A DNA stretch of 64,000 nt from Patescibacteria group bacterium (GTDB lineage Bacteria > Patescibacteriota > Patescibacteriia > UBA2591 > JAQUPP01). Positions within the stretch are counted from its first letter, which is position 1; every line of letters starts with the position of its first letter. The position numbers were made by a program, and so were the translations under genes. This document shows positions 3,274 through 62,892 of this stretch, one piece after another. Location of the stretch: the NCBI GenBank assembly GCA_041649955.1, contig JBAZMD010000001.1:68079-132078 (forward strand). Reading direction: 5' to 3'. The notes under the pieces were generated by a model. It was given only the letters and a program-made list of their open reading frames with translations, searched no databases and had not been told where the DNA came from.

Positions 3274-4734
3274 TTATAATTTGGGGCGCAAAATTGGGAA
3301 TAAAATAACTTCCCGAATATTGCAAGTATTGGTTAAAATAAGAGCCAATCGATCAATGCCAATTCCTTCGCCGGCTGTGGGCGGCATGCCGTATTTTAAA
3401 GCTTTAACGAAATCTTCATCAAGACCTTGCGCTTCTTGGTCCCCTTTTTCGCGCAGTTTATCTTGCTCGTCAAATCTTGATTCTTGATCCAAAGGATCGT
3501 TTAATTCTGAAAAAGCATTGCAAATTTCCATTCCGGCCACCAATAGTTGAAATCTTTCCACATAATTCGGATTATCAGGGCATTTTTTGGCCAATGGCGA
3601 AAGTTCAATCGGATGATGAATTAAAAAAGTCGGATTAATAAGTTTCGGCCTGACGCGCTCTTTAAAAAGTTCATCTAAAATTTTTCCTCTGTCCCATGAT
3701 TTTTCAACTGTTATGCCAAGTTTTTTCACTTGTTCAATCAATCCTTTTAAATCGCGGTATTCTTCAATATCAAGGCCTGTTTCATTTTTAATCGCTTGCC
3801 TGAATTCCAATCGCGGATAAGGCGGTTTGAAATTCAAAGTATTATTTTGATATTCAATGGTCAGTTTTCCTTCCAAATTAGACAACAAATATTCAAATAA
3901 TTCTTCGGTCAGTTTCATTAAAACATTATAATCGGCATAGGATTGATAAAATTCTATTTGGGTAAATTCAGGATTGTGAGAAGCATCAATGCCTTCATTG
4001 CGGAAACATTTTGCAATTTCATAAACTCTTTCAAATCCGCCGATAATCAATCTTTTTAAATAAAGTTCCGGCGCAACTCTTAAATATAAATCAATATCCA
4101 AAGCGTGATTATGAGTGACAAACGGCCTGGCAATTGCTCCGCCGGCTATTGCTTGAAGAACAGGCGTGCTGACTTCCATATAATCCCGCTGATTGAAAAA
4201 ATCTCTGATTAATTGTATCATTTTCGTCCTTTTGACAAAAATATCTCTTACTTCTTGATTGGCAATTAAATCCAAATATCTTTGACGATATCTTGTTTCC
4301 ACATCAGACAAGCCGTGCCATTTTTCAGGAAGCGGTAAAAGAGCCTTGGATAAAAGTTTCCAACTCGTCGCTTTAATTGTTTTCTCGCCTCTTTTGGTAA
4401 TAAAAAGATGACCCTTGATTTCCAAAAAATCGCCGACATCAATATTTTCATTAAAAAACTGATATTCTTTTTCTCCAACATTATCTTGAGCGAAAAAAAT
4501 CTGAAAACGGCCGGTTCCATCTTCCAGATTGGCAAAACACGCCTTGCCGTGAAGCCGCAATAAAACCAAGCGTCCGACTAAACTTACCAAAATTTCTTTT
4601 TCCGATAATTTATCAAAATCATCAATCGCTTGTTTTACGGTATGAGACCTCTCGGATAAAGCCGGATACGGATTAACTTGGCTTGATTTAATTTTTTCTA
4701 ATTTTTCTATTCTTGATTGTTCTTCGTTAGTCAT
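3274..4734 (-). CDS. lysS: Lysyl-tRNA synthetase, class II
   Basis: 486 aa. OB-fold N-domain and class II motifs (CFRNEGIDASHNPEFTQIEFY, GEGIGIDRL). Confidence 0.95.
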   Translation of the reverse strand: MTNEEQSRIEKLEKIKSSQVNPYPALSERSHTVKQAIDDFDKLSEKEILVSLVGRLVLLRLHGKACFANLEDGTGRFQIFFAQDNVGEKEYQFFNENIDVGDFLEIKGHLFITKRGEKTIKATSWKLLSKALLPLPEKWHGLSDVETRYRQRYLDLIANQEVRDIFVKRTKMIQLIRDFFNQRDYMEVSTPVLQAIAGGAIARPFVTHNHALDIDLYLRVAPELYLKRLIIGGFERVYEIAKCFRNEGIDASHNPEFTQIEFYQSYADYNVLMKLTEELFEYLLSNLEGKLTIEYQNNTLNFKPPYPRLEFRQAIKNETGLDIEEYRDLKGLIEQVKKLGITVEKSWDRGKILDELFKERVRPKLINPTFLIHHPIELSPLAKKCPDNPNYVERFQLLVAGMEICNAFSELNDPLDQESRFDEQDKLREKGDQEAQGLDEDFVKALKYGMPPTAGEGIGIDRLALILTNTCNIREVILFPILRPKL

Positions 4735-5448: not shown

Positions 5449-5480
5449 ATCCCCTTGTGGAAAACTTTTTACTCCAAATA

Positions 5481-10986: not shown

Positions 10987-13900
10987 TTATTGCAAAACAC
11001 TGCCGCCTATTTCACTAGTCCATGGATCATTTTTTGTTTTCTCAATAATCGGACCATAAACAGAATTAAAACATTTAAAAGCATCTGAATTATAGCCGAA
11101 TAATTTTTGCTGGCATTTAGTCGTCCAGCCACATAAATAGTGAGTTTCACAAGTATTTCTATCCATACCACCGCAATTTGCCTGCCATTTTGAAGAATCT
11201 GTTTCAAAATTCAGATATAAACGATAATCGTCTTCACTTATGGACACATACTGATAGACAGATGAGCCAACCGGACATTCATATTTACTTGTACTTTGAT
11301 TATAACAGGTTCCGCCGCATTGGCTAGTATCGCTGCAACCGGCGCAATAACCGCTTGTCGGGTTTGAAAATTGATTAGTCGGATCATTCGGCATACTGGA
11401 AATAAATTGCCCTTGAGGATTTTTCCAAGAAGGCCATTTGGAAACGGTCATTCCTTTTATAAAACTGCCTGATTCAAGTTTCGGATAATAACCATTAGTT
11501 GATTTATAATCTGTCAGTTTTTGGTTTATTGTTTTTAAATCATAAAGACGGAATAAATCTCGCTGAATTTTTTGCTGTTCATCAGTAGTTTTATTTGTGT
11601 TAAATTGCCAATTATTAACCAATTGATTAAAAATATCAATTGTCTCAGATTTAGCGCTATCAGAATACGAGATAAGATAAATTAAACCCTCAATTTTTCC
11701 GTCATCTTTAACATTTGTTGCCCCCACATAAACCGTTCTCCCCTCTTTTACCGCTTGATAACCATTAACAATAAACGATGTCGGTGAACCGGGGTTTGGC
11801 ACATTTTTCTTATACCATTCAAAAGGAGTAAGATAATCTGGATTTTTCAAAACCTTAAGACCGATCACGTCATTGTTAGCATTATTGGTAAAAAGAAATT
11901 CTTTAACTACATTTGATTTCGTAGTATCGGTTGCAATAAGAGATGGTAAGGATGGAAAATTTTGATATTCAGTCGGTTGCGCTCCTTTTTCCAATTGAAT
12001 ATTAGTCATATGGATTACATCTTCTTTTGTGGAAGCAGTCCATAATATCCCAACCTTAATTGCGGTATCATCAGGTCCGGTGGTAAAAGTATTGGAAATT
12101 TTAGCCAAAGCGCCAGTAGAAATCGCGTTTCCGGGCCAAACTAAATTATAATATGAAGAAGCAATCTTACTTTGAACATAAATGTATGCCAAAGACGTCC
12201 CTGTTCTATTTACTAACATGGATAGAGTATACTGCGTATTTGGAGAAACCTTAATCCAATTTGTTGATATTACTCCGGGAGTGCTTTTGGATTGCTTATT
12301 CGTGACTTTTAAAACATTATAATTAGATTGTTTAACAGTTGAAATGTCTACGCTTTGATTTTTACTCCAACCATTTGTGCCATCAAACATAGCACCGTTA
12401 AAAACTAAATTTTTCTCTAAATTTCCACGGCAATATTGCAATCTAAAATGAGTTTCTGAATCTGTAAATCCCCCTTGTATCCACGGAAATTCACAAAGAA
12501 AAACTTTGGCTTGTGCCATGGCTGAAAAGCTTTTACCAATATCTGATTTGGAAGTATCGGCTGTAATCTTAGCTGTAACTTTAATCTGCGAATCACCGTT
12601 TTGATTTTGGGCCGTGGCCGTTTGCGATGAATTAGCGCTGATTGGAACTAAAACCACGTTGGGTTTTGAAGAATCCCAAGACCAAGTCCAATTATAATCA
12701 GAAACGCCGTGAATCTCGGCTCCTTTATTATCAAGAGCTTTTGTTGAAAATTTTATTGTTGAATCTTTCTTATAAAACTCCACTGATGCTGGAGAAATAA
12801 TTTTTGGTTTTCCCGGATCTGTATTTACAGGATTAACTTTTTCATCCACTTCTTCGGCGGTTATTTCCACTTTGCTTAATTTGCAAATATCCGCACCAGT
12901 GGTAAATGTCCAAGAATTATTTTCCGCCATCTCAATGCCATATTTGCTTTTTACGATATTTTCTTTACCGGCAATTTCTTCTTTACCGGAAATTTCTACT
13001 TGATAAGTGCAAGCGCCGCTGGCATCTAATAAGCCTAAACCGGAATTTAAATAAACAATGGTTTGTTTTGTGGTATTATTATCAACCGCGGAAATATCCG
13101 CTTTTAAATCATAAATAACTGTTTTTCCCGCTTCAGCTTTTTTCAGAAAAATATTTTTTAAACTATTAAAAAATCTGACAAAAATATTATTTTTCTCCAA
13201 ACTGGCTGTAGCAGGACAATATTTATACAATTTAATTGTATCTGAATTAAGCGTGGATTTGTCCATTAATTGGTCAAAAGTGGCGTAAATTACGGTATTG
13301 CGGCAAACATTACCATTAGGATAACTATTCACTACTGTCGGCTGAGTAGCGACGACTAGATGGGAACTGTCGGAAATCGGTTGTTCACCTTTTGAAGTGG
13401 TAATTGTCGTGCTCACTGTAATATCTGTTTCACCTAAATTTTTACCTTTAACAGTCGCACTCTCGTTTGGCGTACCGACAAATTCAGCGATGTTCGGCGG
13501 ATCAGCGTCACCGTCGTCCCATGACCAAGAATATTTGCTTGATTCCAAATAATTACAATTTGAAGTATAAATTTGAGGAGTGTAAACTTTGGTTTCATTT
13601 TGTAAAATTTGGTTTGTACCCGCGGAATCAAGACAAATTTTATTCAAAGGACAATCATCATTATTCGCGATAAACATCCAAGTATAATCATCTCCTTGAA
13701 CGCCATTTTTGTCTCCATCCAGTTCCAATCCGAATTTATCTTTTATGCCGTTTGATCCGCTTTTTAAAATTATGCGGTAAATTTTATTTTTTTCCAAAGA
13801 AGCAGCAGGTTTGAAATAAAAGCCATTTTTTTCAATCGTAAAAGTGCCGAGAGCTATATTACTTGTCTCATTGTCCGGACATCCAGAATTATTAAAATCA

Positions 13901-19041: not shown

Positions 19042-19069
19042 ATTATAATATATAATAATTAAAAAGCAA
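19042..19069 (-). promoter_or_regulatory. Promoter for rpsU (near-leaderless)
   Basis: ggggcTTGCTTtttaattattatatatTATAATataaagtATG. Only 7 nt separate the -10 box from the ATG. Confidence 0.55.
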
Positions 19070-19222
19070 GCCCCACCACATGGAAATTATTGTTTTTCTG
19101 TAAAATTACGATTTAATAAGTATAAATTAAAAAAAATATTTTAGTTAGATATTTGAAATTATTAAGCATATAAAAAAACAAGAGAACAGTAATTTTAATA
19201 ATTTCCTTGTGGTGGGGCAAGC
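19066..19222. repeat. MITE-like hairpin element with a C-rich and a G-rich arm, full-length copy
   Basis: Arms gcaagccccaccacatggaaattatt and aataatttccttgtggtggggcaagc. The AT-rich interior is homologous, in inverted orientation, to 54813-54962. Confidence 0.75.
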
Positions 19223-25290: not shown

Positions 25291-25343
25291 AATTTTTTCC
25301 TCCTTTTTTTCCCATTATATAATGGGCTAACCTTTATAATTAA

Positions 25344-25372
25344 ATAATAGCAAAAATTTTGATTTTTGTCAA
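25344..25372 (-). promoter_or_regulatory. Conserved promoter module (PLP-enzyme gene)
   Basis: ggggaTTGACAaaaatcaaaatttttgcTATTAT. Confidence 0.7.
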
Positions 25373-25376
25373 TCCC

Positions 25377-26237
25377 CTATTTTTGTTCTTCTTGCTTCCT
25401 AGATTGTACAATTATAGCTTTTTCTACTAGTTCAATATCATTAGGAAGTTTCTTCGCTTCAAAGTCGCCATTATTATCTTGTGAACTAATTTTTTCATAA
25501 AGTAACTTTAATCTATTTTGTTTTTCATCAGTAAGATTCCAACCTTTTTTGAAATCTTCCGTAGATAAAGGGATGTCATATCTGTATAAAATTTCGTTTT
25601 TAATAAAACCGGCATTTTTTAATAATTCTAATAAGGCTTGTTCATCTGTGATAAATTTTTCAACTGCTACTTTTTCTGCAATAATCTTTTCCCTTTCTGT
25701 ATAAAGATAATTAGTCATTTGATTATTTCGAACGGCCGGTGAAACTAAAGCGGATAAAATAAGCTTGCCATCATTTTTTAAAACCCTATTCACTTCTGAT
25801 AGAGCTTTTATCTGTAAGGGTTTTGGAAGATAATCTAAAACCTGTTTTATGGTAATTATGTCGACTGATTTATCATTCAGGGGAATGTCAATAATATCCC
25901 CTGGAAGTTTATCATAACCCTTTTTATCAGGAATCTCATTAAGCATGTCTAGATTCCTGTCAATAAAAATTGTTTTAATGTTAATTCCTTTGTCTTTTAA
26001 TTTCTTCTCAAATTCTTTATTAAAAAAATCCCCGCATATTCCGGGACCGCAACCAATATCAGCTAAAATAATTTCTTTTTTCTTAGCTATTTCTTCAAGA
26101 TCTAAACCGCGAAACATATTCTCTAATACGTCTTCTCTGGCCTGATAACCACGCAAGGATTCTCTATAATTTTTTATCCTCCAAGTATCTCTTGAAACAA
26201 TGTCGCCAGTTGAAACTCCTTTTTCAATATTTGTCAT
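25377..26237 (-). CDS. Class I SAM-dependent methyltransferase
   Basis: 286 aa. Motif I ILADIGCGPGICG, then FIDRN and DIITIKQVLDYL. Confidence 0.8.
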   Translation of the reverse strand: MTNIEKGVSTGDIVSRDTWRIKNYRESLRGYQAREDVLENMFRGLDLEEIAKKKEIILADIGCGPGICGDFFNKEFEKKLKDKGINIKTIFIDRNLDMLNEIPDKKGYDKLPGDIIDIPLNDKSVDIITIKQVLDYLPKPLQIKALSEVNRVLKNDGKLILSALVSPAVRNNQMTNYLYTEREKIIAEKVAVEKFITDEQALLELLKNAGFIKNEILYRYDIPLSTEDFKKGWNLTDEKQNRLKLLYEKISSQDNNGDFEAKKLPNDIELVEKAIIVQSRKQEEQK

Positions 26238-28196: not shown

Positions 28197-28433
28197 TTAA
28201 GCCCATCTTATTGTGGATCCAATTCTGAATCCACATTCTTCCGCTACTGCAGTCGCCTTTTGAAACTCTTCGTTAAATTTTTGTGCTTGAACAAGATCCT
28301 GATTATCACATGCATTCCGAACTTTAAGAGCCATTTCTTTTAATTTCTGTATAACTCTTCCACTGGCACTATTCTGAGGCCAAATTCCAAAGACGGAATG
28401 AAAATTCTTTATATTTAAATAAATTTTTTTCAT
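28197..28433 (-). CDS. Hypothetical small protein (78 aa)
   Basis: Has its own promoter module, SD AGGAGGAAAG and a downstream hairpin terminator. Confidence 0.6.
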   Translation of the reverse strand: MKKIYLNIKNFHSVFGIWPQNSASGRVIQKLKEMALKVRNACDNQDLVQAQKFNEEFQKATAVAEECGFRIGSTIRWA

Positions 28434-28540
28434 CTTTCCTCCTTTTTCCCTTGTTTTTCAAGGGAATTTCTGAAAAATTTGATTTCTTGTTTTTAAACCC
28501 TTGTTATTAAATTACAAAGAACTTTATCTTTTATGTTAAA

Positions 28541-28569
28541 ATAATAGCATATTTTTTGATTTTTGTCAA
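28541..28569 (-). promoter_or_regulatory. Conserved promoter module (78-aa gene)
   Basis: ggggTTGACAaaaatcaaaaaatatgcTATTAT. Confidence 0.7.
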
Positions 28570-28580
28570 CCCCTTTATTA

Positions 28581-28611
28581 AAAATTCAAAAAGGCGAGAA
28601 TTAATCTCGCC
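28581..28611 (-). terminator. Intrinsic terminator after the Q-rich protein gene
   Basis: ggcgaga-attaa-tctcgcc, followed by tttttgaatttt. Confidence 0.7.
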
Positions 28612-30668: not shown

Positions 30669-30817
30669 CCCTCACCCTTCGACGATAATATTCGCCCTCG
30701 TATTTTCCAATTGCCTTTTATAAAATAAAAATAAATTTTCTTGAATCCAGATTAAACTGAATAAATTAGTAAAGACAGGCTCGTATTTGGAAAATAACAT
30801 CGTCGAAGGGTGAGGGA
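30668..30817. repeat. Perfect 19-nt inverted repeat spanning the mpg ribosome-binding region
   Basis: tccctcacccttcgacgat (30668-30686) pairs with atcgtcgaagggtgaggga (30799-30817). A second tier pairs tattttccaa with ttggaaaata. Confidence 0.7.
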
Positions 30818-41513: not shown

Positions 41514-42962
41514 TTATTTTCGCCCTCTTTTAATTATTATAACCTTCCCGTGTGTTGCGTCAACTTCTATCAAATCACCGTCTTTCAAAACCTTAGTGGC
41601 GATTTTGGTGCCGATAATACACGGCTTTCCCATTTCACGGGCAATGATAGCCGCATGACAAGTTAATCCGCCATCATTTGTAATTATTGCTTTAGTTTTT
41701 GAAATTGCCCCCATAAAATCTGGAGTTGTCATAAAAGTAACAAGAATTTCTCCTTTTTTCATTTTAGATATTTCGGCCGCATTTCTGATAATTCTAACTC
41801 TACCCTTAACATAACCGGCCGAGGCTGACACACCTTTAATAATCCGTATTAAAGAATCTTTAACAATTTTATTCTTGGGTATAAAAATTTTTATTTTTCC
41901 TTTATGTAATCTTATAAAATAATTATTGTTTCTTTTTTTAAGCTCGGGGGTGGAAATTAAAAGTTTTCCAATTTTTAAACTGGCAATTAATTCATCTGAA
42001 GTCAAATTAGTTAAATCAGTATAATCAACAGAAAGTCGCTTGCCAACTTCTGAAAAAAAGAATCTCATTAAGTATTCCGAGTTTTCTATGAAAGAAAGCA
42101 TTTCTGTTCTATAAAAAGACAGATTAGCTAAATCTTTAAATAATTTTTTTGTAATTTTATCAATTGCATATTTTTTATATAATGCCTTCTTGTCAGAAGC
42201 TAAATCAATTTTCATTTTGGGATAATTTTTTTTCTTTAGAGCAATTTTTATTTCCTCAATGGTGTCTATAATTGTAGGGTATTTATCAGTAGTAAAAAAG
42301 ACACAACCCATTCTCACATATTTTTGATGAAATTTATTTATTATTTTTTTTAGTCTTTTGGGGGAATTATCAATTATTTCATTCAATTTTCTATTAAACA
42401 ATTTTTGGTATTTCGCTCTTCTGATAAAATTAACGATTTTTTGCAAATCATCCTGCTTTTTTTCGATATAATTTTTTCTAGAGGACTGCATTAATATCCC
42501 AAATTCTTCATCTTCTTGTTTTTTATTAACAACTGATAGCAAATTTTTAGTAAGTGCATCAATGCTAAAATTTCCTGTATACACATAACCTATAAAACGC
42601 GCATAATAATCTGTCCAAGCTGTAAATAATTTTATCAATTTTCTATTTGAATACTTCTCTATTTTATAGGAGCTGACCTTTTTACTGAATTTATATAATT
42701 TCCTTCCATATTTTTTGTATTCAGCAAAAAGTTTTTTTAATTTACCATTTTTAATATTCTTCAATATTTCATGATGCGCAACCTCTATATCTTCTAACCC
42801 AAAATAAGCTTGAGCTTTAATCTGACTATTTATATATTTATAATCTTGGATTATCCTGCTATGCAAGGGTGTTTTAGAAACATAACCCGCTAAGGCGTAT
42901 TTAGTGGCTATATATCTGGGAAGCAGAGGTAGGGCCTTTTGTGTTGTAGCTATCCATTTCAT
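41514..42962 (-). CDS. Unknown ~370-aa N-domain fused to a C-terminal PEP-utilizer mobile (swivel phospho-His) domain, paralog C
   Basis: 482 aa. C-terminus GEILVTFMTTPDF...GGLTCHAAIIAREMGKPCIIGT...DGDLIEVDATHG. Confidence 0.8.
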   Translation of the reverse strand: MKWIATTQKALPLLPRYIATKYALAGYVSKTPLHSRIIQDYKYINSQIKAQAYFGLEDIEVAHHEILKNIKNGKLKKLFAEYKKYGRKLYKFSKKVSSYKIEKYSNRKLIKLFTAWTDYYARFIGYVYTGNFSIDALTKNLLSVVNKKQEDEEFGILMQSSRKNYIEKKQDDLQKIVNFIRRAKYQKLFNRKLNEIIDNSPKRLKKIINKFHQKYVRMGCVFFTTDKYPTIIDTIEEIKIALKKKNYPKMKIDLASDKKALYKKYAIDKITKKLFKDLANLSFYRTEMLSFIENSEYLMRFFFSEVGKRLSVDYTDLTNLTSDELIASLKIGKLLISTPELKKRNNNYFIRLHKGKIKIFIPKNKIVKDSLIRIIKGVSASAGYVKGRVRIIRNAAEISKMKKGEILVTFMTTPDFMGAISKTKAIITNDGGLTCHAAIIAREMGKPCIIGTKIATKVLKDGDLIEVDATHGKVIIIKRGRK

Positions 42963-42980
42963 AATTTAATTTTAAATTAT

Positions 42981-43925
42981 TTACAAAGTCGTAATCGGCC
43001 TACTTTGTACGATATAGAACTTTTTATTTTCCAAAGCCCACTCAATATCGCAGGGAAATTTATAATGTTTTTCAATTTGAGCGCACAATTTAGCCAATTC
43101 AATAATTTGTTTGTTGTTGAATTTTTGTTTAGCACGCAATTTATTCGGCACTTTTACCCATTCGCTGCCAATGCCTGATTTTTTCTGAACAATCATTTTT
43201 TCTTGCTCTGAAATATTAATATCAATAATTTTCCATGTTTTTTTATTAATCACATAACTGTCAGGCGTAATATGTCCGCCGACAATCGCCTCTCCCAAAC
43301 CCCAACCGGCTTCAATAATCAGCTGGTTTTTATCTTTTGTAACAGGATGAGTGGTAAAACAAATGCCTGAAATTTCCGATTGAATCATTTTCTGAATTAC
43401 CACGGCCACGGAAACTTTTGATTTTCTCATTCCTTGTTCCCGGCGATAAACAATTGCTCTTTGAGTAAAAAGCGAAGACCAGCAATCTTTAACTCGACCT
43501 AATAAATTCTGCCGAGTTGTATTGAGATAACTTTCCAGTTCTCCGGCCCATGAAGCGACTGACGAATCTTCGGCTGTCGCGCTGCTCCGAACCGCCACAT
43601 GTTTTGCTTTTAATTTATCAAAATCAATTAAAATTTCTTGCTGTAAATCTTTAGGCATTTTTGCGTCATGAATTAAATCGCGAATTAATTTTGATGCCTG
43701 ATCAACCGAATTAACATCTTTATAATTCACTTTATTTAAAGCCGATTCAATTTCAACATCTATATCAGTTTCTGTTAAAAATCTTTCAAAGGCATCAGCC
43801 AAAACCACAAATCCCGGCGGCACTTGAATTCCCGCTTGTGTCATTTCTCCCAACGACGCCCCCTTGCCTCCGGCAATTCCAACATCTTTTTTTGATAATT
43901 GTTTAAAATTTTTAGTAAATTTCAT
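42981..43925 (-). CDS. Stand-alone PPDK_N / PpsA-type ATP-grasp nucleotide-binding domain protein
   Basis: 314 aa. Motifs GGKGASLGEM, VAVRSSATAEDSSVASWAGE and DIEWALENKKFYIVQSRPITTL. It has no swivel domain and no PEP/pyruvate domain. Confidence 0.85.
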   Translation of the reverse strand: MKFTKNFKQLSKKDVGIAGGKGASLGEMTQAGIQVPPGFVVLADAFERFLTETDIDVEIESALNKVNYKDVNSVDQASKLIRDLIHDAKMPKDLQQEILIDFDKLKAKHVAVRSSATAEDSSVASWAGELESYLNTTRQNLLGRVKDCWSSLFTQRAIVYRREQGMRKSKVSVAVVIQKMIQSEISGICFTTHPVTKDKNQLIIEAGWGLGEAIVGGHITPDSYVINKKTWKIIDINISEQEKMIVQKKSGIGSEWVKVPNKLRAKQKFNNKQIIELAKLCAQIEKHYKFPCDIEWALENKKFYIVQSRPITTL

Positions 43926-43945
43926 ATATTTTTATTTTAATTTAT

Positions 43946-45397
43946 TTATTTATTTTTTAAAATTTTGACTAATCCATGATTTGCATTAACTTCCACCAAA
44001 TCACCGTCTTTCAAAACCTTAGTGGCAATTTTGGTGCCAACCAAGCACGGAATCCCTAATTCCCTTGAAACAATAGCCGCGTGGCAAGTTAATCCTCCTT
44101 CGTCGGTAATAACCGCCCCTGCTTTTTTTATTGCCACAATAAATTCAGGCGAAGTCATTGGGGCAACCAAAATTTCACCTTGCTTCATTTTATTTAGATT
44201 ACGGGGTGTTAATAATATTCTGACTCTTCCCTGAATTTTACCGCAACCGGCGCTGACAACCATACCATTTATTATCCCAGATTCTCTATTGACTTCCTTT
44301 TTCAAGAAAGGCCTGATTAAATTTATCTGTTTTTTCCCGCTCTTGAGAGTCAAAACATTTTTATAATAATGAATTAAGGCAAATTTTTTTCTATTTGCTA
44401 TTTCTTTAGAAGATACTTTTGCGCCATTTTTTAATAATTTGATAATTTCATTCGGCCAATAAAACATTAAATCGGAAAAATTAATTTTTTTTCTTCTGGA
44501 AATCTCTTTCAAGAATAAATCAACATAATGATTGGCGATAAAAATTTCTTTTTTCCTCGTATCCTGCCACCAGATTGAAGCCGAAAGCCTTTTAACTGTC
44601 TTAATGGTTTTTGCGTTAAGTTTATATTTTCTGAATAATTGATTTTTTTGAAAAATTATTTTTCTCGGCAAATTTTTGATTTCCTTTATTTTTTGATTAA
44701 CTTGCCTGATGCCTGATAATATTTTTTTAAAATACTCCGCTTTCAATTGTTTTTGTTCAAAATAACTGTTTCTAATCCAAAAATATCGTCGGATATGTTT
44801 TTCAATCAATTGATCAAATTTTTTTGTTCCCTGATATTTTTTTATTTCCAATAAATCCAATTCTTCTTTTTGATAAAAAGAAAGATTTTCCGGAGCGGCT
44901 AATTTTTCAAGGGCTGAAATAAATTCTTTTTGGTTGTCAATTTGCTTGGATAATTCTTCTTTTAAAATTTCTTCACCGCCCAAATTGGCAAGTTCCGGAA
45001 CTAATCCCACTCCCCAAAAATTTATATACAAATTGTGCCATTTATTGTAAGTATCGGCGAAGGCCTTATCAGTCAATAAACCGAGAGATTTTTCTGAAAT
45101 TTTCGTCTGGAAATTTTTTAATTTATTCAAGGCTTTTTTATAATCAGCTTGAACTTTTTTAAAATTTAAATCATTCAAAATCCATGTATTAAAATGTTTT
45201 CTTCCGGCTGTCCTGACATTTTTTTCATCGGAAATAAAAGTCATTTTATCTTTTGTAAAATAAAACAAAATCTCGGGCCAGTGATATTTGTAATAACGGG
45301 GCAAGTTCGTGGCAATCCCTATCATAAAATAGGATATATAAATCATTCTCCCGTCAATCGGTCCCCAAATCCAAAGTTTTTTTTGTGAATTAATCAT
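43946..45397 (-). CDS. Unknown ~370-aa N-domain fused to a C-terminal PEP-utilizer mobile (swivel phospho-His) domain, paralog B
   Basis: 483 aa. C-terminus GEILVAPMTSPEF...GGLTCHAAIVSRELGIPCLVGT...DGDLVEVNANHG. Confidence 0.8.
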   Translation of the reverse strand: MINSQKKLWIWGPIDGRMIYISYFMIGIATNLPRYYKYHWPEILFYFTKDKMTFISDEKNVRTAGRKHFNTWILNDLNFKKVQADYKKALNKLKNFQTKISEKSLGLLTDKAFADTYNKWHNLYINFWGVGLVPELANLGGEEILKEELSKQIDNQKEFISALEKLAAPENLSFYQKEELDLLEIKKYQGTKKFDQLIEKHIRRYFWIRNSYFEQKQLKAEYFKKILSGIRQVNQKIKEIKNLPRKIIFQKNQLFRKYKLNAKTIKTVKRLSASIWWQDTRKKEIFIANHYVDLFLKEISRRKKINFSDLMFYWPNEIIKLLKNGAKVSSKEIANRKKFALIHYYKNVLTLKSGKKQINLIRPFLKKEVNRESGIINGMVVSAGCGKIQGRVRILLTPRNLNKMKQGEILVAPMTSPEFIVAIKKAGAVITDEGGLTCHAAIVSRELGIPCLVGTKIATKVLKDGDLVEVNANHGLVKILKNK

Positions 45398-46868
45398 TGT
45401 TTAAATGTTTTAAAATTTTAACAATTCCCCTGTTCGCATCCACCTCCACCAAATCCCCGTTACGTAATGTCCCTGTTAAACCGTGAATTCCTACTATACA
45501 AGGTGTTTTCAACTCTCGCGAAACAATGGCCGCATGAGAAGTGATACCACCCCTTTCGGTTAAAATCGCTTTTGCTTGCTTCATAAGAAAGATATAATCC
45601 GGCGTAGTGTGGGAGGCAACCAATATAGCTCCCTTTTTAAATTTAGAAAAATCTCTTTCTGATTTTATAATTAAAACTTGGCCGATAACGTTTCCAGGAT
45701 AAACGGCTGCCCCGCAAAGAACCTTTTTCTTTTCTTGGCGCAATAAAATTGATCTTATTTTCAGAGCTGACTCACCTTCTAATAATGAGTAATCTTTATC
45801 AATCCCCAAAAAGATAATGGTGGATTTTTGTCTTTTTTTAATAAGATTTAAAAAATTATTTTTATTTTTTAAATTTATCTGCAACTGCTCTTCCCAAGTT
45901 AACCATCTGAATTTTTCGTAATCCAGCGCATAATTTTTTGCCACTCTTTTAAGCCAAGTCTTAATGGGTATTGTTGTTTGTAAATTAAAAGCTTTTCTTT
46001 GGTCTCTTAATTTATACAGAATATCAAGAAAATTAATCAATTTTTTAATATTTTCAGGTTTTGTTTTTAAAATTTTTCTCTTCTTTTTTCTTTGTTTTTC
46101 CGAACATTTTATTTTTTCCCACTCATTTTTAAAATTCTGTGCCAAATCTATACCATGTTCTATAAATAAAATTTCTTTTGGCAAAGCGTGCGACTTAAAA
46201 TTTAAAAATACCCAACCCCATTTTTGAGCGTGAAAAATAATTTTTTTACTTAAAATCTCATATTTTGCCAAATCTCGTACTCCGCTTTTTAGCTTTTTAA
46301 ATTCTTCAGACGGCAAACTTTTAATCAATTCTAATAAATTTTTATGTTCTTCCATTACAAAAGAGTCCTGTAAGGGCGTCATCAGCAACATTAATTCTTT
46401 CTCGTCTTTAATGGTTTCTTTGATTTTTATTTCCAAATATTTTTCAACAGCTTCACAGGTATTCATTAATAAAGCCATCCACTTCTGAATAACTTCTACA
46501 AAATTCGTATATATTTTTTTGTCTATCTTTGCTGATTTTTCTAATCTATCAAGAGCTTGCCAATTTTTTTTCGTCAGATTAATAAATTCTTTTTCTAATT
46601 GAATTGGATTATTCTTATATTTCAAATAAAATACCTGGCCCAATTTTAATAATGATTTTTTATCCAAACAATAATAAAAAGAATCTTTGTCATAAATTTG
46701 AATTAATTTAGCGCAGATTCCAAACATTTTTTTCTGAAGAGTACAGCTTCTCTTAAAACCCAAGTCCGTCCACCAAAAAAAATCAGCGTCATATTTGCCG
46801 ATTTCAAGATCGTCTTTTATCTTTTTTATTTTATTGATAAAGCTAGACACAAGTTTCTTTTCGGACAT
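45390..46868 (-). CDS. Unknown ~380-aa N-domain fused to a C-terminal PEP-utilizer mobile (swivel phospho-His) domain, paralog A
   Basis: 492 aa. C-terminus GAILVASHTTPDY...GGITSHAAIVSRELKTPCIVG...NGDLVEVDANRG. Overlaps the next gene by 8 nt. Confidence 0.8.
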   Translation of the reverse strand: MSEKKLVSSFINKIKKIKDDLEIGKYDADFFWWTDLGFKRSCTLQKKMFGICAKLIQIYDKDSFYYCLDKKSLLKLGQVFYLKYKNNPIQLEKEFINLTKKNWQALDRLEKSAKIDKKIYTNFVEVIQKWMALLMNTCEAVEKYLEIKIKETIKDEKELMLLMTPLQDSFVMEEHKNLLELIKSLPSEEFKKLKSGVRDLAKYEILSKKIIFHAQKWGWVFLNFKSHALPKEILFIEHGIDLAQNFKNEWEKIKCSEKQRKKKRKILKTKPENIKKLINFLDILYKLRDQRKAFNLQTTIPIKTWLKRVAKNYALDYEKFRWLTWEEQLQINLKNKNNFLNLIKKRQKSTIIFLGIDKDYSLLEGESALKIRSILLRQEKKKVLCGAAVYPGNVIGQVLIIKSERDFSKFKKGAILVASHTTPDYIFLMKQAKAILTERGGITSHAAIVSRELKTPCIVGIHGLTGTLRNGDLVEVDANRGIVKILKHLNND

Positions 46869-53001: not shown

Positions 53002-53238
53002 TTATTTAATTAATTCTGTTAATTTATCAAGTTTTTTATGAAACACGGAAACAATCTTGCCGAATTGATTGCTCGGAATAAGAATTATTGTTTCTGCCGG
53101 AGTCAAAAAAGCCACCAGCTTATCGCCGCTTTTTATTTTCAATTTTTTGCGGATTTCGGCCGGAACTACAATCTGTCCCCGTTCGCCGACTGTGGCGGTA
53201 TCAAAACAAATTATGCTTTCAAAAAAATCTTTTTTCAT
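53002..53238 (-). CDS. AbrB/SpoVT-family DNA-binding protein
   Basis: 78 aa with the swapped-hairpin motif GERGQIVVPAEIRKKLKIKSGDKL. Lies 18 nt upstream of hlyD. Confidence 0.8.
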   Translation of the reverse strand: MKKDFFESIICFDTATVGERGQIVVPAEIRKKLKIKSGDKLVAFLTPAETIILIPSNQFGKIVSVFHKKLDKLTELIK

Positions 53239-53288: not shown

Positions 53289-53316
53289 ATTATAGCTAAT
53301 CTAAAATCTTCGTCAA
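53289..53316 (-). promoter_or_regulatory. Promoter for the abrB-hlyD-ABC operon
   Basis: gtgggggTTGACGaagattttagattagcTATAAT. The -35 box is embedded in the arm of an inverted repeat. Confidence 0.65.
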
Positions 53317-53436
53317 CCCCCACACCAAACTTAGCGCTTGATTTACATATTATAAAAGTCGTAAGACGGAAGCCGCTTCGCTCTTATCTCTTCATATTAA
53401 AAAAGCCTTACGTTGAGTTGTGGTGTGGGGGTCAAC
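53311..53436. repeat. Inverted repeat with C-rich and G-rich arms around the abrB promoter region
   Basis: cgtcaacccccacaccaaac (53311-53330) pairs with gttgtggtgtgggggtcaac (53417-53436). An internal cgtaag/cttacg pairing is also present. Confidence 0.6.
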
Positions 53437-53464: not shown

Positions 53465-53507
53465 TAACAAAATAAATAGGGGTGAGAGAACTTGTCTCAC
53501 ACCCCCC
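53465..53507 (-). terminator. Intrinsic terminator closing the orphan transcript
   Basis: ggggtgtgaga-caagt-tctctcacccc, followed by tatttatttt. Confidence 0.6.
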
Positions 53508-53693
53508 TGGAGGATAACAGTGTATAAAGCTGTTATATCGATATTAGTGTTTTAAGGCGGTATTCCCCTATAATGGGACATGAGGACCTCCTATTTTTAG
53601 CAATTTAGGTAGCGCTCAAATTTGATCCCTTTCAGGATCTGGCTAGCGCTAAGCCATTGCTTTCATAAAAACCACCTCCTTTATATTATGATA
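53465..53693 (-). ncRNA. Candidate ~225-nt small transcript (promoter to terminator, no real ORF)
   Basis: Bounded by the TTGACA-N16-TATACT promoter and a hairpin plus U-run. Contains several hairpins (gatcc-tgaaa-gggatc, ataacag...ctgttat, AGCGCT palindromes) and two SD-led micro-ORFs (MKAMA at 53649-53666, MSHYRGIPP at 53552-53581). Confidence 0.4.
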
Positions 53694-53699
53694 TAAACG

Positions 53700-53727
53700 A
53701 GTATATCACATTTTAAAATTTTGTCAA
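53700..53727 (-). promoter_or_regulatory. Orphan promoter with no protein gene downstream
   Basis: TTGACAaaattttaaaatgtgaTATACT. Confidence 0.6.
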
Positions 53728-53733
53728 CTCTTT

Positions 53734-54141: not shown

Positions 54142-54169
54142 AGTATAATATTTTTTAAAATTATGTCCA
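54142..54169 (-). promoter_or_regulatory. Promoter for the 133-aa gene, leaderless geometry
   Basis: ggggTGGACAtaattttaaaaaatatTATACTaaaaatATG. Confidence 0.55.
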
Positions 54170-54230
54170 CCCCACCACCAAGAAATTATACTTCGCGTTA
54201 AAAAAATATAATTTCTAGGTGGCGGGGTCA
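54166..54230. repeat. Miniature (65-nt) member of the same hairpin family
   Basis: tccaccccaccaccaagaaattata ... tataatttctaggtggcggggtca. About 19 of 21 arm positions are complementary. Confidence 0.65.
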
Positions 54231-54274
54231 ATAAAAAAAATTGGGTGCAGACTAGTCAAACTAGTTCTGCACCC
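54231..54274 (-). terminator. Intrinsic terminator after the 137-aa gene
   Basis: gggtgcagaactag-tttg-actagtctgcaccc, followed by a T-run. Confidence 0.75.
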
Positions 54275-54281
54275 TGATATG

Positions 54282-54695
54282 TTATATACTCGCTATTTGG
54301 ATATTTAGCTCTTCCTGTTGTCTTCTTAGTGTGTCTCTAGCTTGAAAAACTAGAGAATTCTTATCTTCAATTCTAACCTTATTCAAAGATAAAGTTGAAG
54401 AGTTCTCAACAGAATTGACCGGTTTTACTATATTCACCTTTAGAATATTGAATTCGATTTTTCCAATCTCTTTTTTTACCGGTTTTACTAAAACCTGCGA
54501 AACTAATTCAACGGGCTGAGCAACGGTAGATAAATCATTATTACTTATCTCTATACTCATCGGCAATACTTCTGGCATTGTTGTTACCTTGCTTACAACC
54601 GGTGTAAATTTGTTTTCCAAATTTGTAGTAGAAGCATAAGCTCCTATGGCAGTAAACACAACAACAACTAACAGAATTTTTTGAAATTTATTCAT
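54282..54695 (-). CDS. Hypothetical secreted or membrane-anchored protein (137 aa)
   Basis: N-terminal hydrophobic helix KILLVVVVFTAIGAYA. SD GGGAGG, promoter module and terminator present. Confidence 0.6.
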   Translation of the reverse strand: MNKFQKILLVVVVFTAIGAYASTTNLENKFTPVVSKVTTMPEVLPMSIEISNNDLSTVAQPVELVSQVLVKPVKKEIGKIEFNILKVNIVKPVNSVENSSTLSLNKVRIEDKNSLVFQARDTLRRQQEELNIQIASI

Positions 54696-54784
54696 TTAAG
54701 ACCTCCCGTCTTATTAGTTTTGCGAATCCTTTCTTTTTAGCCCGGATTCGCTTCGGCTATTTACAAAGAACTATTGTGTTATAT

Positions 54785-54812
54785 ATAATAGCATATTTTT
54801 GAATTTTGTCAA
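54785..54812 (-). promoter_or_regulatory. Conserved promoter module (137-aa gene)
   Basis: gagggggTTGACAaaattcaaaaatatgcTATTAT. Confidence 0.7.
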
Positions 54813-54962
54813 CCCCCTCACATGTGGAAAACCATAAAGGGCATACTGTCTTTCGTTTTTTTATATATACACTGATTTTATCTTATCTATATGCTTATTT
54901 TTAACTTTATGCCTATTAAACTGTAATTTCCAAGAAAGACAATGGTTTTCCTTGTGAGGGGG
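54813..54962. repeat. MITE-like hairpin element with a C-rich and a G-rich arm, full-length copy (opposite orientation)
   Basis: Arms ccccctcacatgtggaaaaccat and atggttttccttgtgaggggg. Interior blocks match the reverse complement of the 19066-19222 interior. Confidence 0.75.
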
Positions 54963-54977
54963 CCAAGAGCAAATTTG

Positions 54978-55473: not shown

Positions 55474-55527
55474 TATTGCCCCCCCCTTTTTTTTCTATTC
55501 AACGAACTTTAATTTTTATATGTTTTA

Positions 55528-55555
55528 ATTATAGCATATTTTTGATTTTTGTCAA
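55528..55555 (-). promoter_or_regulatory. Conserved promoter module (147-aa gene)
   Basis: TTGACAaaaatcaaaaatatgcTATAAT. Confidence 0.7.
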
Positions 55556-55843: not shown

Positions 55844-55897
55844 GATAGTTAAATTTAACTGTAATTTTCAGAAAAATAATAATCCCCATATGGGGAC

Positions 55898-56969: not shown

Positions 56970-57034
56970 TCATCCCACCTCCTTTTAAAAGATGCTTTTA
57001 AATCCTTAATTATTAGATTTAATTTGTTACTATT

Positions 57035-57063
57035 ATTTAAGCAAATTTTTTGATTTTTGTCAA
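57035..57063 (-). promoter_or_regulatory. Conserved promoter module (Cys-rich 131-aa gene)
   Basis: ggggTTGACAaaaatcaaaaaatttgcTTAAAT. Confidence 0.65.
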
Positions 57064-57078
57064 CCCCTATTACAAAAA

Positions 57079-57825
57079 TTATTCTTTGACCAATTCAACA
57101 GACAAGCTTTCAAGAGGGATTCCTTGATATTGCTTTTTGCTTATCTCTTTATTTTCCAATAAAATATTGGCAATAAATCCCACTTTTTTTATTTTATTCA
57201 AATAATCTTCTTTTAATAACGCTCCTGCCACGCAACCGGATAATAACTCTTCATTATTTCTTTGCTCGTCCGATAATTCTTTTAATAAAACAATATCAGA
57301 AACATACATTCTGCCTCCTCTTTTCAAAACCCTATAAGCTTCTTTAAACGTTTTTTCTTTATCCGGAGTAAGATTTATGACGCAGTTTGTTATTATAACA
57401 TCCACGGTATTGTCTTTAATCGGCAGATTTTCTATTTCTCCTAAAATAAATTCTAAATTTTTTAAATTATTATTTTTGGCGATTGATTTTGCTCTTTCAA
57501 CCATTGCCTCGGTCATATCTATTCCGATAACTTTGCCGTTTTCACCAACTTTTTTTGCGGCCAAGAAACAATCAATACCAGCCCCTGATCCCAAATCCAA
57601 AACCGTATCCCCTTCTTTTATCTTGCTTAGAGCTACCGGATTCCCGCAGCCAAGACCAAGATTCGCGCTCCCTGCTACTTTGAGATCATTTTCCGAATAT
57701 CCTATATCTTTTGAAATATTAACGCCTTTTCCGCAACTACAGCTGCAACCGCATTGAGAACCGCTCTTCGCCAATTCTTCATATTTACTTTTTACGATTT
57801 GTTTTATATCTTTAGAATTTTTCAT
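57079..57825 (-). CDS. arsM: ArsM-like SAM-dependent methyltransferase (arsenite/thiol methyltransferase layout)
   Basis: 248 aa. N-terminal Cys cluster SQCGCSCSCG, then GLGCGNP and motif I VLDLGSGAGIDCF. Confidence 0.7.
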   Translation of the reverse strand: MKNSKDIKQIVKSKYEELAKSGSQCGCSCSCGKGVNISKDIGYSENDLKVAGSANLGLGCGNPVALSKIKEGDTVLDLGSGAGIDCFLAAKKVGENGKVIGIDMTEAMVERAKSIAKNNNLKNLEFILGEIENLPIKDNTVDVIITNCVINLTPDKEKTFKEAYRVLKRGGRMYVSDIVLLKELSDEQRNNEELLSGCVAGALLKEDYLNKIKKVGFIANILLENKEISKKQYQGIPLESLSVELVKE

Positions 57826-58375: not shown

Positions 58376-58405
58376 TTCAATCACCCCCTTTTTTTAATTA
58401 TTTAA

Positions 58406-58434
58406 AATATATCATAATTTTTACTTTTTGTCAA
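58406..58434 (-). promoter_or_regulatory. Promoter module (140-aa gene)
   Basis: TTGACAaaaagtaaaaattatgaTATATT. Confidence 0.65.
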
Positions 58435-58475
58435 GACATTTTTGAATAATAAAAAAAGATTTAAAGAATCTAGTT

Positions 58476-62758: not shown

Positions 62759-62814
62759 CTCTCCCCCTTTATTGCTTTTTAAAAAACTATTGTTAGTTTT
62801 TATATTATATTTAA

Positions 62815-62843
62815 ATAATAGCACATTTTTCACTTTTTGTCAA
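62815..62843 (-). promoter_or_regulatory. Promoter module (80-aa membrane gene)
   Basis: TTGACAaaaagtgaaaaatgtgcTATTAT. Confidence 0.65.
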
Positions 62844-62862
62844 GTGTAATTATCTCTAATTT

Positions 62863-62892
62863 TAAAAAATAACCGCTTAAATAAACGGTTAT
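62863..62892 (-). terminator. Intrinsic terminator after tRNA-Gln
   Basis: ataaccg-tttatttaag-cggttat, followed by ttttt. Confidence 0.65.

Follow-up and report, generated by a model that had tools for sequence, protein, structure and literature searches.

The DNA analysed here is a 64,000-nucleotide stretch (the window) of contig JBAZMD010000001.1, from a bacterium whose close relatives carry the annotation "Patescibacteria group bacterium". It has 35% G+C, is about 90% coding and has nearly all of its genes on the minus strand. Four short hairpin-forming elements, here called A, B, C and G, stand in it directly upstream of the promoters of rpsU, of genes for proteins of 137 and 133 amino acids (aa), and of a MazE-like antitoxin gene, respectively. 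Three of the four occupy consecutive promoters within 1.7 kb, in a block of small genes that varies between strains and for which no Pfam hit is recorded. An earlier note on this DNA, made from the sequence alone, had described A, B and C as one hairpin family resembling miniature inverted-repeat transposable elements (MITEs) and always ending at a -35 box; G turned up while promoters were being listed. The elements, their flanking repeats and the adjoining promoters are as follows.

Element A, family 1: 19071-19217, minus strand, 147 nt; arms CCCCACCACA(A/T)GGAAATTATT; interior reversed relative to the adjoining promoter
Promoter-side repeat of A: 19067-19070, minus strand, CTTG; overlaps the rpsU -35 box TTGCTT (19064-19069)
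Distal repeat of A: 19218-19221, minus strand, CTTG
rpsU promoter at A: minus strand, -35 TTGCTT 19064-19069, N16, -10 TATAAT 19042-19047
Element B, family 1: 54813-54962, minus strand, 150 nt; arms CCCCCTCACAAGGAAAACCAT and ATGGTTTTCCACATGTGAGGGGG; interior forward relative to the promoter
Repeats of B: minus strand, promoter-side TTGA 54809-54812, distal TTGG 54963-54966; one mismatch, the same in the sister-strain contig L071 (below)
Promoter of the 137-aa gene at B: minus strand, -35 TTGACA 54807-54812, N16, -10 TATTAT 54785-54790
Element C, family 2: 54170-54227, minus strand, 58 nt; arms CCCC(G/A)CCACC(T/A)AGAAATTATA
Repeats of C: minus strand, promoter-side TGGA (the first four bases of the -35 box), distal TTGA 54228-54231; one mismatch
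Promoter of the 133-aa gene at C: minus strand, -35 TGGACA 54164-54169, N16, -10 TATACT
Element G, family 3: 53317-53431, minus strand, 115 nt; arms CCCCCACACCA(C)AACT; interior unrelated to families 1 and 2
Repeats of G: minus strand, promoter-side TTGA 53313-53316, distal TTGA 53432-53435; both perfect
Promoter of the MazE-like antitoxin gene (53002-53238) at G: minus strand, -35 TTGACG 53311-53316, N16, -10 TATAAT

Anatomy of the elements

All of the elements described in this report are 58-151 nt long and contain no open reading frame (ORF), and the ends of every copy are terminal inverted repeats of 13-24 nt with 0-2 mismatches. The C-rich and G-rich arms on which the earlier note was built are readily recovered: the arm pattern CCCCNYCACAWGGAAA matches the window ten times at no more than three mismatches, against 3.98 +/- 1.71 times in shuffled sequence, and all matches with 0-2 mismatches are the six arms of A, B and C. 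Folding, which the note had recommended, yields long hairpins for A, B and C, with z scores of -5.4 to -9.8 against mononucleotide shuffles. The limits first given for B are exact; those for A (19066-19222) take in the flanking repeat, and C is 58 rather than 65 nt long. Nor is C a version that has kept only the arms, since it belongs to a sister family and has a 134-nt ortholog (C') in L071, relative to which C is, on sequence comparison, a copy with an internal deletion. The whole window, scanned with Rfam at gathering thresholds, gave only tRNA-Gln and no match to an element, and sensitive Rfam scans of the element regions returned hairpin noise far below threshold.

Each element has a 4-bp direct repeat on both sides, TTGA in most copies and CTTG in A. 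The promoter-side repeat is also the start of the -35 box, and the -10 box lies 16-17 nt beyond. On the minus strand G, for example, reads gaggggTTGA, CCCCCACACCACAACT...AAGTTTGGTGTGGGGG, TTGAcgaag.

Unoccupied sites in related strains

Comparison of occupied with empty sites, also recommended in the note, drew on L001, a locus of the related metagenome-assembled genome (MAG) GCA_028717225.1; L071 and L072, from a co-occurring sister strain (L071 from JGI 3300029288, L072 from the ENA assembly that also contains the window's strain); and two further lineages, L078-L081 and L075/L076, in the same 90%-identity protein cluster. Exact-protein look-ups of the genes for 147-, 137-, 133- and 78-aa proteins (the last at 28197-28433) gave matches confined to the window's own strain.

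The A site is empty in three other lineages, L001, L078-L081 and L075/L076; the window's lineage has therefore acquired A recently. The Na/Pi-cotransporter gene and rpsU occur in L001 as well, 81 bp apart there and 222 bp apart in the window. Where the window reads aggCTTG[CCCC...GGGG]CTTGcttttt (that is, ...agaataggCTTG, then the 147 nt, then CTTGctttttaattattatatatTATAAT), L001 and L078 have ggtaTTGCttttttaattattatatatTATAAT and ggtaTTGCtttttt (L001 ...agaatggtaTTGCttttttaattattatatatTATAAT), with the -10 box and the rpsU start unchanged; the window has two copies of (A/C)TTG, L001 and L078 one each. At the G site the window reads ggggTTGA[CCCCC...GGGGG]TTGAcgaag, and L071 and L072 read cacagaggggTTGAcgaaaatttcagatcaacTATAAT and ggggTTGAcgaaa, with a single TTGA for the window's two. 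The target duplication has thus been checked against empty sites for both A and G; its limits can be placed only to within about 1 nt, since C is both the first base of the element and the base with which the flank goes on.

Both empty alleles have the same -35 and -10 boxes as the window, TTGCTT-N17-TATAAT for rpsU and TTGACG-N16-TATAAT for the MazE-like gene. The elements therefore went into promoters that were already there, and the note's suggestion that they create promoters does not hold. The repeats are perfect in the polymorphic copies A and G and carry one mismatch each in B and C, which the window's strain and the sister strain share (the B ortholog in L071, at 3694-3844, differs at about ten positions). 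Decay of the repeats in this order is consistent with A and G being young insertions and B and C old ones.

In L075 (11603-11795) the spacer between the Na/Pi-cotransporter gene and rpsU holds a long AT-rich inverted repeat of another kind, upstream of TTGACC-N17-TATAAT, and that spacer has therefore been remodelled independently.

Further copies, families and orientation

The note had also proposed a search for more copies. Besides G in the window, three are present in related contigs.

Element E, family 1: L019 (same MAG as L001) 4549-4692; TTGA on both sides, then a -35/-10 pair
Element F, family 1: L066 (a metagenome contig whose sample is shared with the relative L079) 11903-12040; TTGA on both sides, then a -35/-10 pair
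Element I, family 2: L071 4453-4524; an extra short copy, with TTGA on both sides, then a -35/-10 pair

The G-rich arm of E, F and I directly precedes the -35/-10 pair, and since their neighbouring genes are unrelated these are independent insertions; elements are thus dispersed over seven loci (A, B, C, G, E, F and I) among unrelated genes. A scan for single arms in 185,579 representative genomes gave 59 matches, about the number estimated for chance, and E in L019 was the only true copy among them; the matches in L056 and L054 were set aside as chance. A two-arm scan of JGI metagenomes gave one true copy, F in L066; its matches in L064 and L065 are other hairpins without TTGA repeats, and the remaining two are chance. 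Two scans of viral contigs gave no copies. In about 0.45 Mb from unrelated loci there are three C4...G4 hairpins, and 4-nt flanking repeats are absent from all of them (0/3).

The elements fall into three families. Family 1 (A, B, E and F) has homologous interiors (z = 5-12), family 2 (C, C' and I) has the left part of the interior in common, and family 3 is G. Family 1 has no match in the interiors of C' and G, which do not match one another either, and across families only the outer 9-10 nt and the target are in common, the ends being 5'-CCCC(C)NCAC...GTGN(G)GGGG-3'. The note's report that A and B have opposite interiors is borne out: A aligns globally to the reverse complement of B with a score of 91 and to B itself with a score of 30, and after removal of the 24-nt ends the z scores are 9.1 and -0.5. 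With the adjoining promoter taken as reference, A and E have a reversed interior and B and F a forward one, so the element has no fixed polarity towards the gene. Folded as an alignment, the copies give a 21-bp terminal stem and a second helix (TGTCTTTC/GAAAGACA), with four compensatory pairs. A longer element reaching into the left flank GCTCTTGA of B, E and F was ruled out, because the empty A and G sites put the boundary at the C-run and because B's left flank differs between strains.

Within positions 4453-5183 of L071, a 135-aa gene that has a promoter and a terminator of its own stands after I and before the 134-nt C'. At the same place the window has only the 58-nt C, flanked by the left flank of I and the right flank of C'. 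The comparison suggests that recombination between copies removed a gene, or else that two copies delimit a cassette.

The hairpin repeats in the AT-rich metagenome contigs L064 (4488-4634 and 5322-5452) and L065 (601-742) have inner ends identical or nearly identical to those of family 1 (CCCCCTCACAAGG / CCCCCCCACAAGGAA; CCCCCTCACAAGG is the 13-nt end), with longer inverted repeats, other interiors and no TTGA repeats. They and family 1 may belong to a wider superfamily of ends.

Association with -35 boxes

The note's observation that the G-rich arm adjoins a -35 box holds for A, B and C and extends to G and to the three loci in related contigs; its idea that the elements target promoters is therefore sustained as an association, found at 7 of 7 independent loci. 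For a background, the elements were removed to rebuild the ancestral window, and intergenic TTGA sites were then counted. There are 88 of these on the two strands, of which 19 (22%) begin a promoter-like -35 box that has a gene after it, and against this background 7/7 corresponds to p ~2e-5. Such a link could equally reflect active recognition of TTGAC-type sites or a specificity for TTGA combined with loss of damaging insertions; in so compact a genome, insertions in genes, untranslated regions and terminators would probably be lost. Conservation of the target beyond TTGA, such as TCTTGACAA, would favour active targeting of the -35 box.

The note had also taken GGGG motifs before other promoters for relics of the same design. 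Their enrichment is strong: of about 21 -35 boxes that carry no element, at least 6 have GGGG within the preceding 8 nt, compared with 1.4% of intergenic positions. The note is borne out only in part here, and the motifs, the 14-nt palindrome included, may or may not be relics.

28570-28573, minus strand: GGGG before the element-free -35 box TTGACA
57064-57067, 25374-25377, the left flank of G and the palindrome at 55883-55896: similar GGGG cases

At 57063 the window has AGGGG (taatAGGGGTTGACA) where L071 has AAGAAC (taataAGAACTTGACA), the neighbouring sequence shown being otherwise identical; at 25372 L078 reads TTTAAGG, and similarity begins at or just upstream of the -35 box. Scars left by earlier insertions would account for GGGG before a -35 box, and so would a native motif or a target preference. 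A simple scar would not predict the variable gap, 0 to 2 nt, between GGGG and the -35 box.

At 5449-5472 (minus strand) AAAAGTTTTCCACAAGGGGAT, like the 3' arm of B (GGTTTTCCACATGTGAGGGGG), stands directly before the -35 box TTGACT, and may be the remnant of a solo arm or a product of chance. A near-uniform promoter, spacer included (TTGACAAAAATCAAAAAATATGCTATTAT; repeat families D2 and D7), precedes unrelated genes at these places:

25339-25396, 28536-28593, 57030-57087, 55516-55555, 58401-58458 and 62810-62867: copies of the uniform promoter

Nature of the elements

We consider it likely that the elements are non-autonomous terminal-inverted-repeat transposons, that is, MITEs of at least three families, whose target duplication would restore the -35 box. 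What the note had called a MITE-like mobile hairpin is upheld by the lack of coding sequence, the terminal inverted repeats, the 4-bp direct repeats, the occurrence in both orientations, the dispersed loci and the empty sites of A and G. Ends and TTGA target that are the same across families are as expected if one transposase, or close relatives, moves all of them in trans. On insertion, staggered cleavage would duplicate TTGA, with which the -35 hexamer TTGACA begins, or CTTG in the case of A. The downstream TTGA together with the untouched "CA" would then rebuild a -35 box with the usual spacing to the -10 box, and the gene's promoter would therefore survive, while the sequence upstream of the -35 box would be shifted 60-150 bp away and the G-rich arm would take its place. 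From these features we infer a DDE-type cut-or-copy-and-paste mechanism; an IS1380/piggyBac-like enzyme as the mover is a lead only, taken from analogy.

Several observations weigh against this interpretation. Pfam scans of 23 window ORFs revealed no transposase or recombinase, and neither a transposase nor a full-length element with these ends was found in the window, among the genes called in the relatives' loci or at the single-arm matches in the representative genomes. (L026, the sole full-length candidate from a search for partner arms near those matches, contains housekeeping genes and no transposase.) The copy number is low, with four elements in 64 kb, three of them within 1.7 kb, and the arm scans added just one copy in the sister lineage's representative genome and one in the JGI metagenomes. 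The repeats are irregular, being shifted by one base (CTTG) in A and carrying a mismatch in each of B and C. B, E and F also have GCTC in common just upstream of the repeat; the extended -35 consensus accounts for its TC but not for its GC. Paired changes in the arms (AC/GT versus CT/AG, TT/AA versus CC/GG) keep the arms complementary, and a mismatch or bulge at stem position 11 is kept in every copy of all three families. Such a pattern hints at maintenance of the hairpin as such, something not required of ends that only bind a transposase.

The same elements could alternatively be moved by another chemistry, either single-strand transposition of the folded hairpin (of the HUH/Y1, IS200/IS605 or REPIN/RAYT kind) or site-specific recombination of a circle with a GGGGG-TTGA-CCCCC junction, with TTGA as a shared core or target and no duplication by a staggered cut. 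Folded single-strand substrates such as attC sites and IS200/IS605 ends are read by stem features like the compensated arms and the conserved irregularity at position 11. Abutted ends would moreover make an inverted repeat around a 4-nt spacer, and exactly one TTGA is left where an element is lost or absent. We nonetheless regard such a chemistry as improbable. The flanking tetranucleotides are direct (TTGA...TTGA), whereas those of REPINs are inverted; the interior occurs in both orientations relative to the TTGA strand, whereas insertions of the IS200/IS605 type keep to one strand and one orientation; the two ends pair with one another, and there are no separate subterminal hairpins; and no Y1/RAYT, serine or tyrosine recombinase gene is present at the loci examined. 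Two specific assignments were rejected: a REPIN/RAYT system (the repeats are direct, copies are few and Pfam scans of the window ORFs gave no RAYT-like gene) and an IS200/IS605-derived hairpin (PATE), which would lie in one orientation 3' of a fixed tetra- or pentanucleotide and have subterminal hairpins, where the present elements lie in both orientations and have mutually pairing ends.

The note had offered, as its other explanation, a unit of promoter and hairpin in which the hairpin acts as an insulator or terminator, and one could go further and see the elements as host regulatory modules, spread only secondarily, that block read-through or replace the UP-element region. Their position, in every case past the end of one transcription unit and ahead of the following -35 box, agrees with this, as do the absence of another obvious terminator upstream of A together with the CTTGCTTTTT that follows A, the GGGG enrichment even at element-free promoters, and the conservation of the hairpin through compensatory changes. 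Yet A and G are absent from near-identical sites in sister strains, and the elements are therefore dispensable. The promoter belongs to the flank, and a canonical terminator with a GC stem and T-run precedes each of B, C, G and I. The interior may point either way, and interiors are unrelated from family to family. The elements themselves do not resemble intrinsic terminators (a short GC-rich stem and a U-run), being hairpins of 58-150 nt with a T-rich run, looked for on either strand, only after A. We consider it very unlikely that they are regulatory modules of this kind, and the combined unit of the note is not sustained.

It is scarcely credible that the elements are invertible DNA switches (invertons) or small structured RNA genes. 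In favour of this, the folds are stable, the arm mismatch of A (T.T versus A.A) is opposite in relation to the interior compared with B, E and F, and the loop of C appears inverted relative to its 134-nt ortholog, but no invertase gene is nearby (the Pfam scans of window ORFs gave no recombinase), the elements contain no strong promoter, B and its ortholog B' have the same orientation in two strains, Rfam gives no match above noise, nothing obviously transcribes elements that sit between a terminator and a promoter, and presence/absence polymorphism with flanking duplications would be left unexplained.

Within the preferred interpretation of the elements as MITEs, a more specific proposal is that the transposase actively recognises the sigma-70 -35 hexamer (TTGAC-type, perhaps with upstream DNA or a bound factor) as a safe haven, the duplication being self-repairing, that pairs of elements shuffle cassettes of promoter, gene and terminator, and that the GGGG motifs are scars. 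We put this forward tentatively, as a possibility that is more doubtful than not.

Other hairpins and loci in the region

Two other hairpins came to light. Hairpin D (30669-30816, minus strand, 148 nt) has arms (AT)CCCTCACCCTTCGACGAT and no TTGA repeats. Its 3' arm contains a Shine-Dalgarno sequence and adjoins the start codon (ATG) of a gene for methylpurine-DNA glycosylase. D includes a weak promoter-like site, TTCAAG-N17-TATAAA, and begins where synteny with L078 and L075 ends, just after the terminator of a 2308-aa gene. Hairpin H (80 nt, arms CCCCGTTAGAAGTT) is present in L001 (3804-3884) and L075 (9495-9574) and absent at window position 21303/21304 and in L078-L081. It overlaps the end of a histidine-kinase gene (final codons and stop) and shows no clear target duplication; H is a second polymorphic hairpin family in the genus.

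The locus at 53480-53730 (minus strand) starts with a strong promoter, TTGACA-N16-TATACT (-35 at 53722-53727), which is followed by about 210 nt with only tiny ORFs (MKAMA*, MSHYRGIPP*) and closed by a canonical terminator (GGGGTGTGAGA...TCTCTCACCCC and a T-run). It has no Rfam match and may be a small RNA or leader-peptide locus. At 41514-46868 lie three tandem paralogs (about 480-490 aa) that all have a PEP-utilising mobile domain at the C terminus, beside a gene with a PPDK N-terminal domain (42981-43925); repeat families D1 and D6 mark these duplications.

Discussion

Among the MITEs of bacteria, the Correia elements (CREE) belong to Neisseria and RUP to Streptococcus pneumoniae. Correia elements duplicate TA and carry parts of promoters in their own ends, whereas here TTGA is duplicated and the promoter pre-exists in the target. 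Otherwise Correia elements, RUP and MITEAba12 of Acinetobacter (PMC6382973) have much in common with the present elements: a length of 60-150 nt, no ORF, hairpin-forming inverted repeats, a short duplication, intergenic sites near promoters, both orientations, and presence/absence polymorphism between strains. The elements described here stand apart from them in their very low copy number, in having no known parent insertion sequence and in their host, a member of the Patescibacteria or candidate phyla radiation (CPR). A literature search, of poor quality, for MITEs in Patescibacteria or with -35/TTGACA targets found nothing relevant.

In design of ends and target, there is a likeness to the piggyBac superfamily and the related IS1380 family of prokaryotes, which also have a fixed, duplicated 4-bp target, C-rich 5' ends and empty sites with exactly one target. 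IS1380 elements have repeats of 4-5 bp and "CC" ends in the ISfinder tables. The elements here end in CCCCCTCAC, CCCCACCAC and CCCCCACAC; inverted repeats of the piggyBac superfamily are reported to have CCCTC, CCCTT and CCCAT motifs at their 5' ends (PMC10813416). The target of piggyBac is TTAA. The likeness goes no further than this design, since the present target is TTGA, not TTAA, and piggyBac is eukaryotic. REP and REPIN elements, which RAYT transposases mobilise (PMC2817692), are likewise non-coding intergenic hairpin repeats of about 100 nt with conserved stems and more variable loops, presumably moved in trans; their inverted flanking tetranucleotides, lack of a target duplication, tens to hundreds of copies and RAYT gene have no counterpart here. 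Putative mobile promoters (PMC3488235, "Promoter propagation in prokaryotes") are repeats tied to promoters of unrelated genes, as ours are, but the present repeat carries no promoter.

What we describe is thus a small superfamily of hairpin MITEs: an element of a known kind, with an unusual and possibly specific insertion site, in an under-studied lineage. It shows active or recent mobile DNA in a Patescibacteria lineage, a group whose small genomes are considered poor in such elements, and points to a source of promoter-proximal variation and gain or loss of gene cassettes among co-existing strains; I, the 135-aa gene and C' in one strain, as compared with the lone C of the window, would be an example of cassette shuffling. 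Landing on the -35 box with self-repair would let a transposon occupy a very compact genome without damage to it and, if the -35 box is indeed recognised, such a transposon could persist in a streamlined, 90%-coding CPR genome. This would be a bacterial counterpart to the promoter-targeting of some eukaryotic elements. TTGA-flanked hairpins with a C-run and a G-run may also serve as a marker for promoters and for strain differences in these uncultivated organisms.

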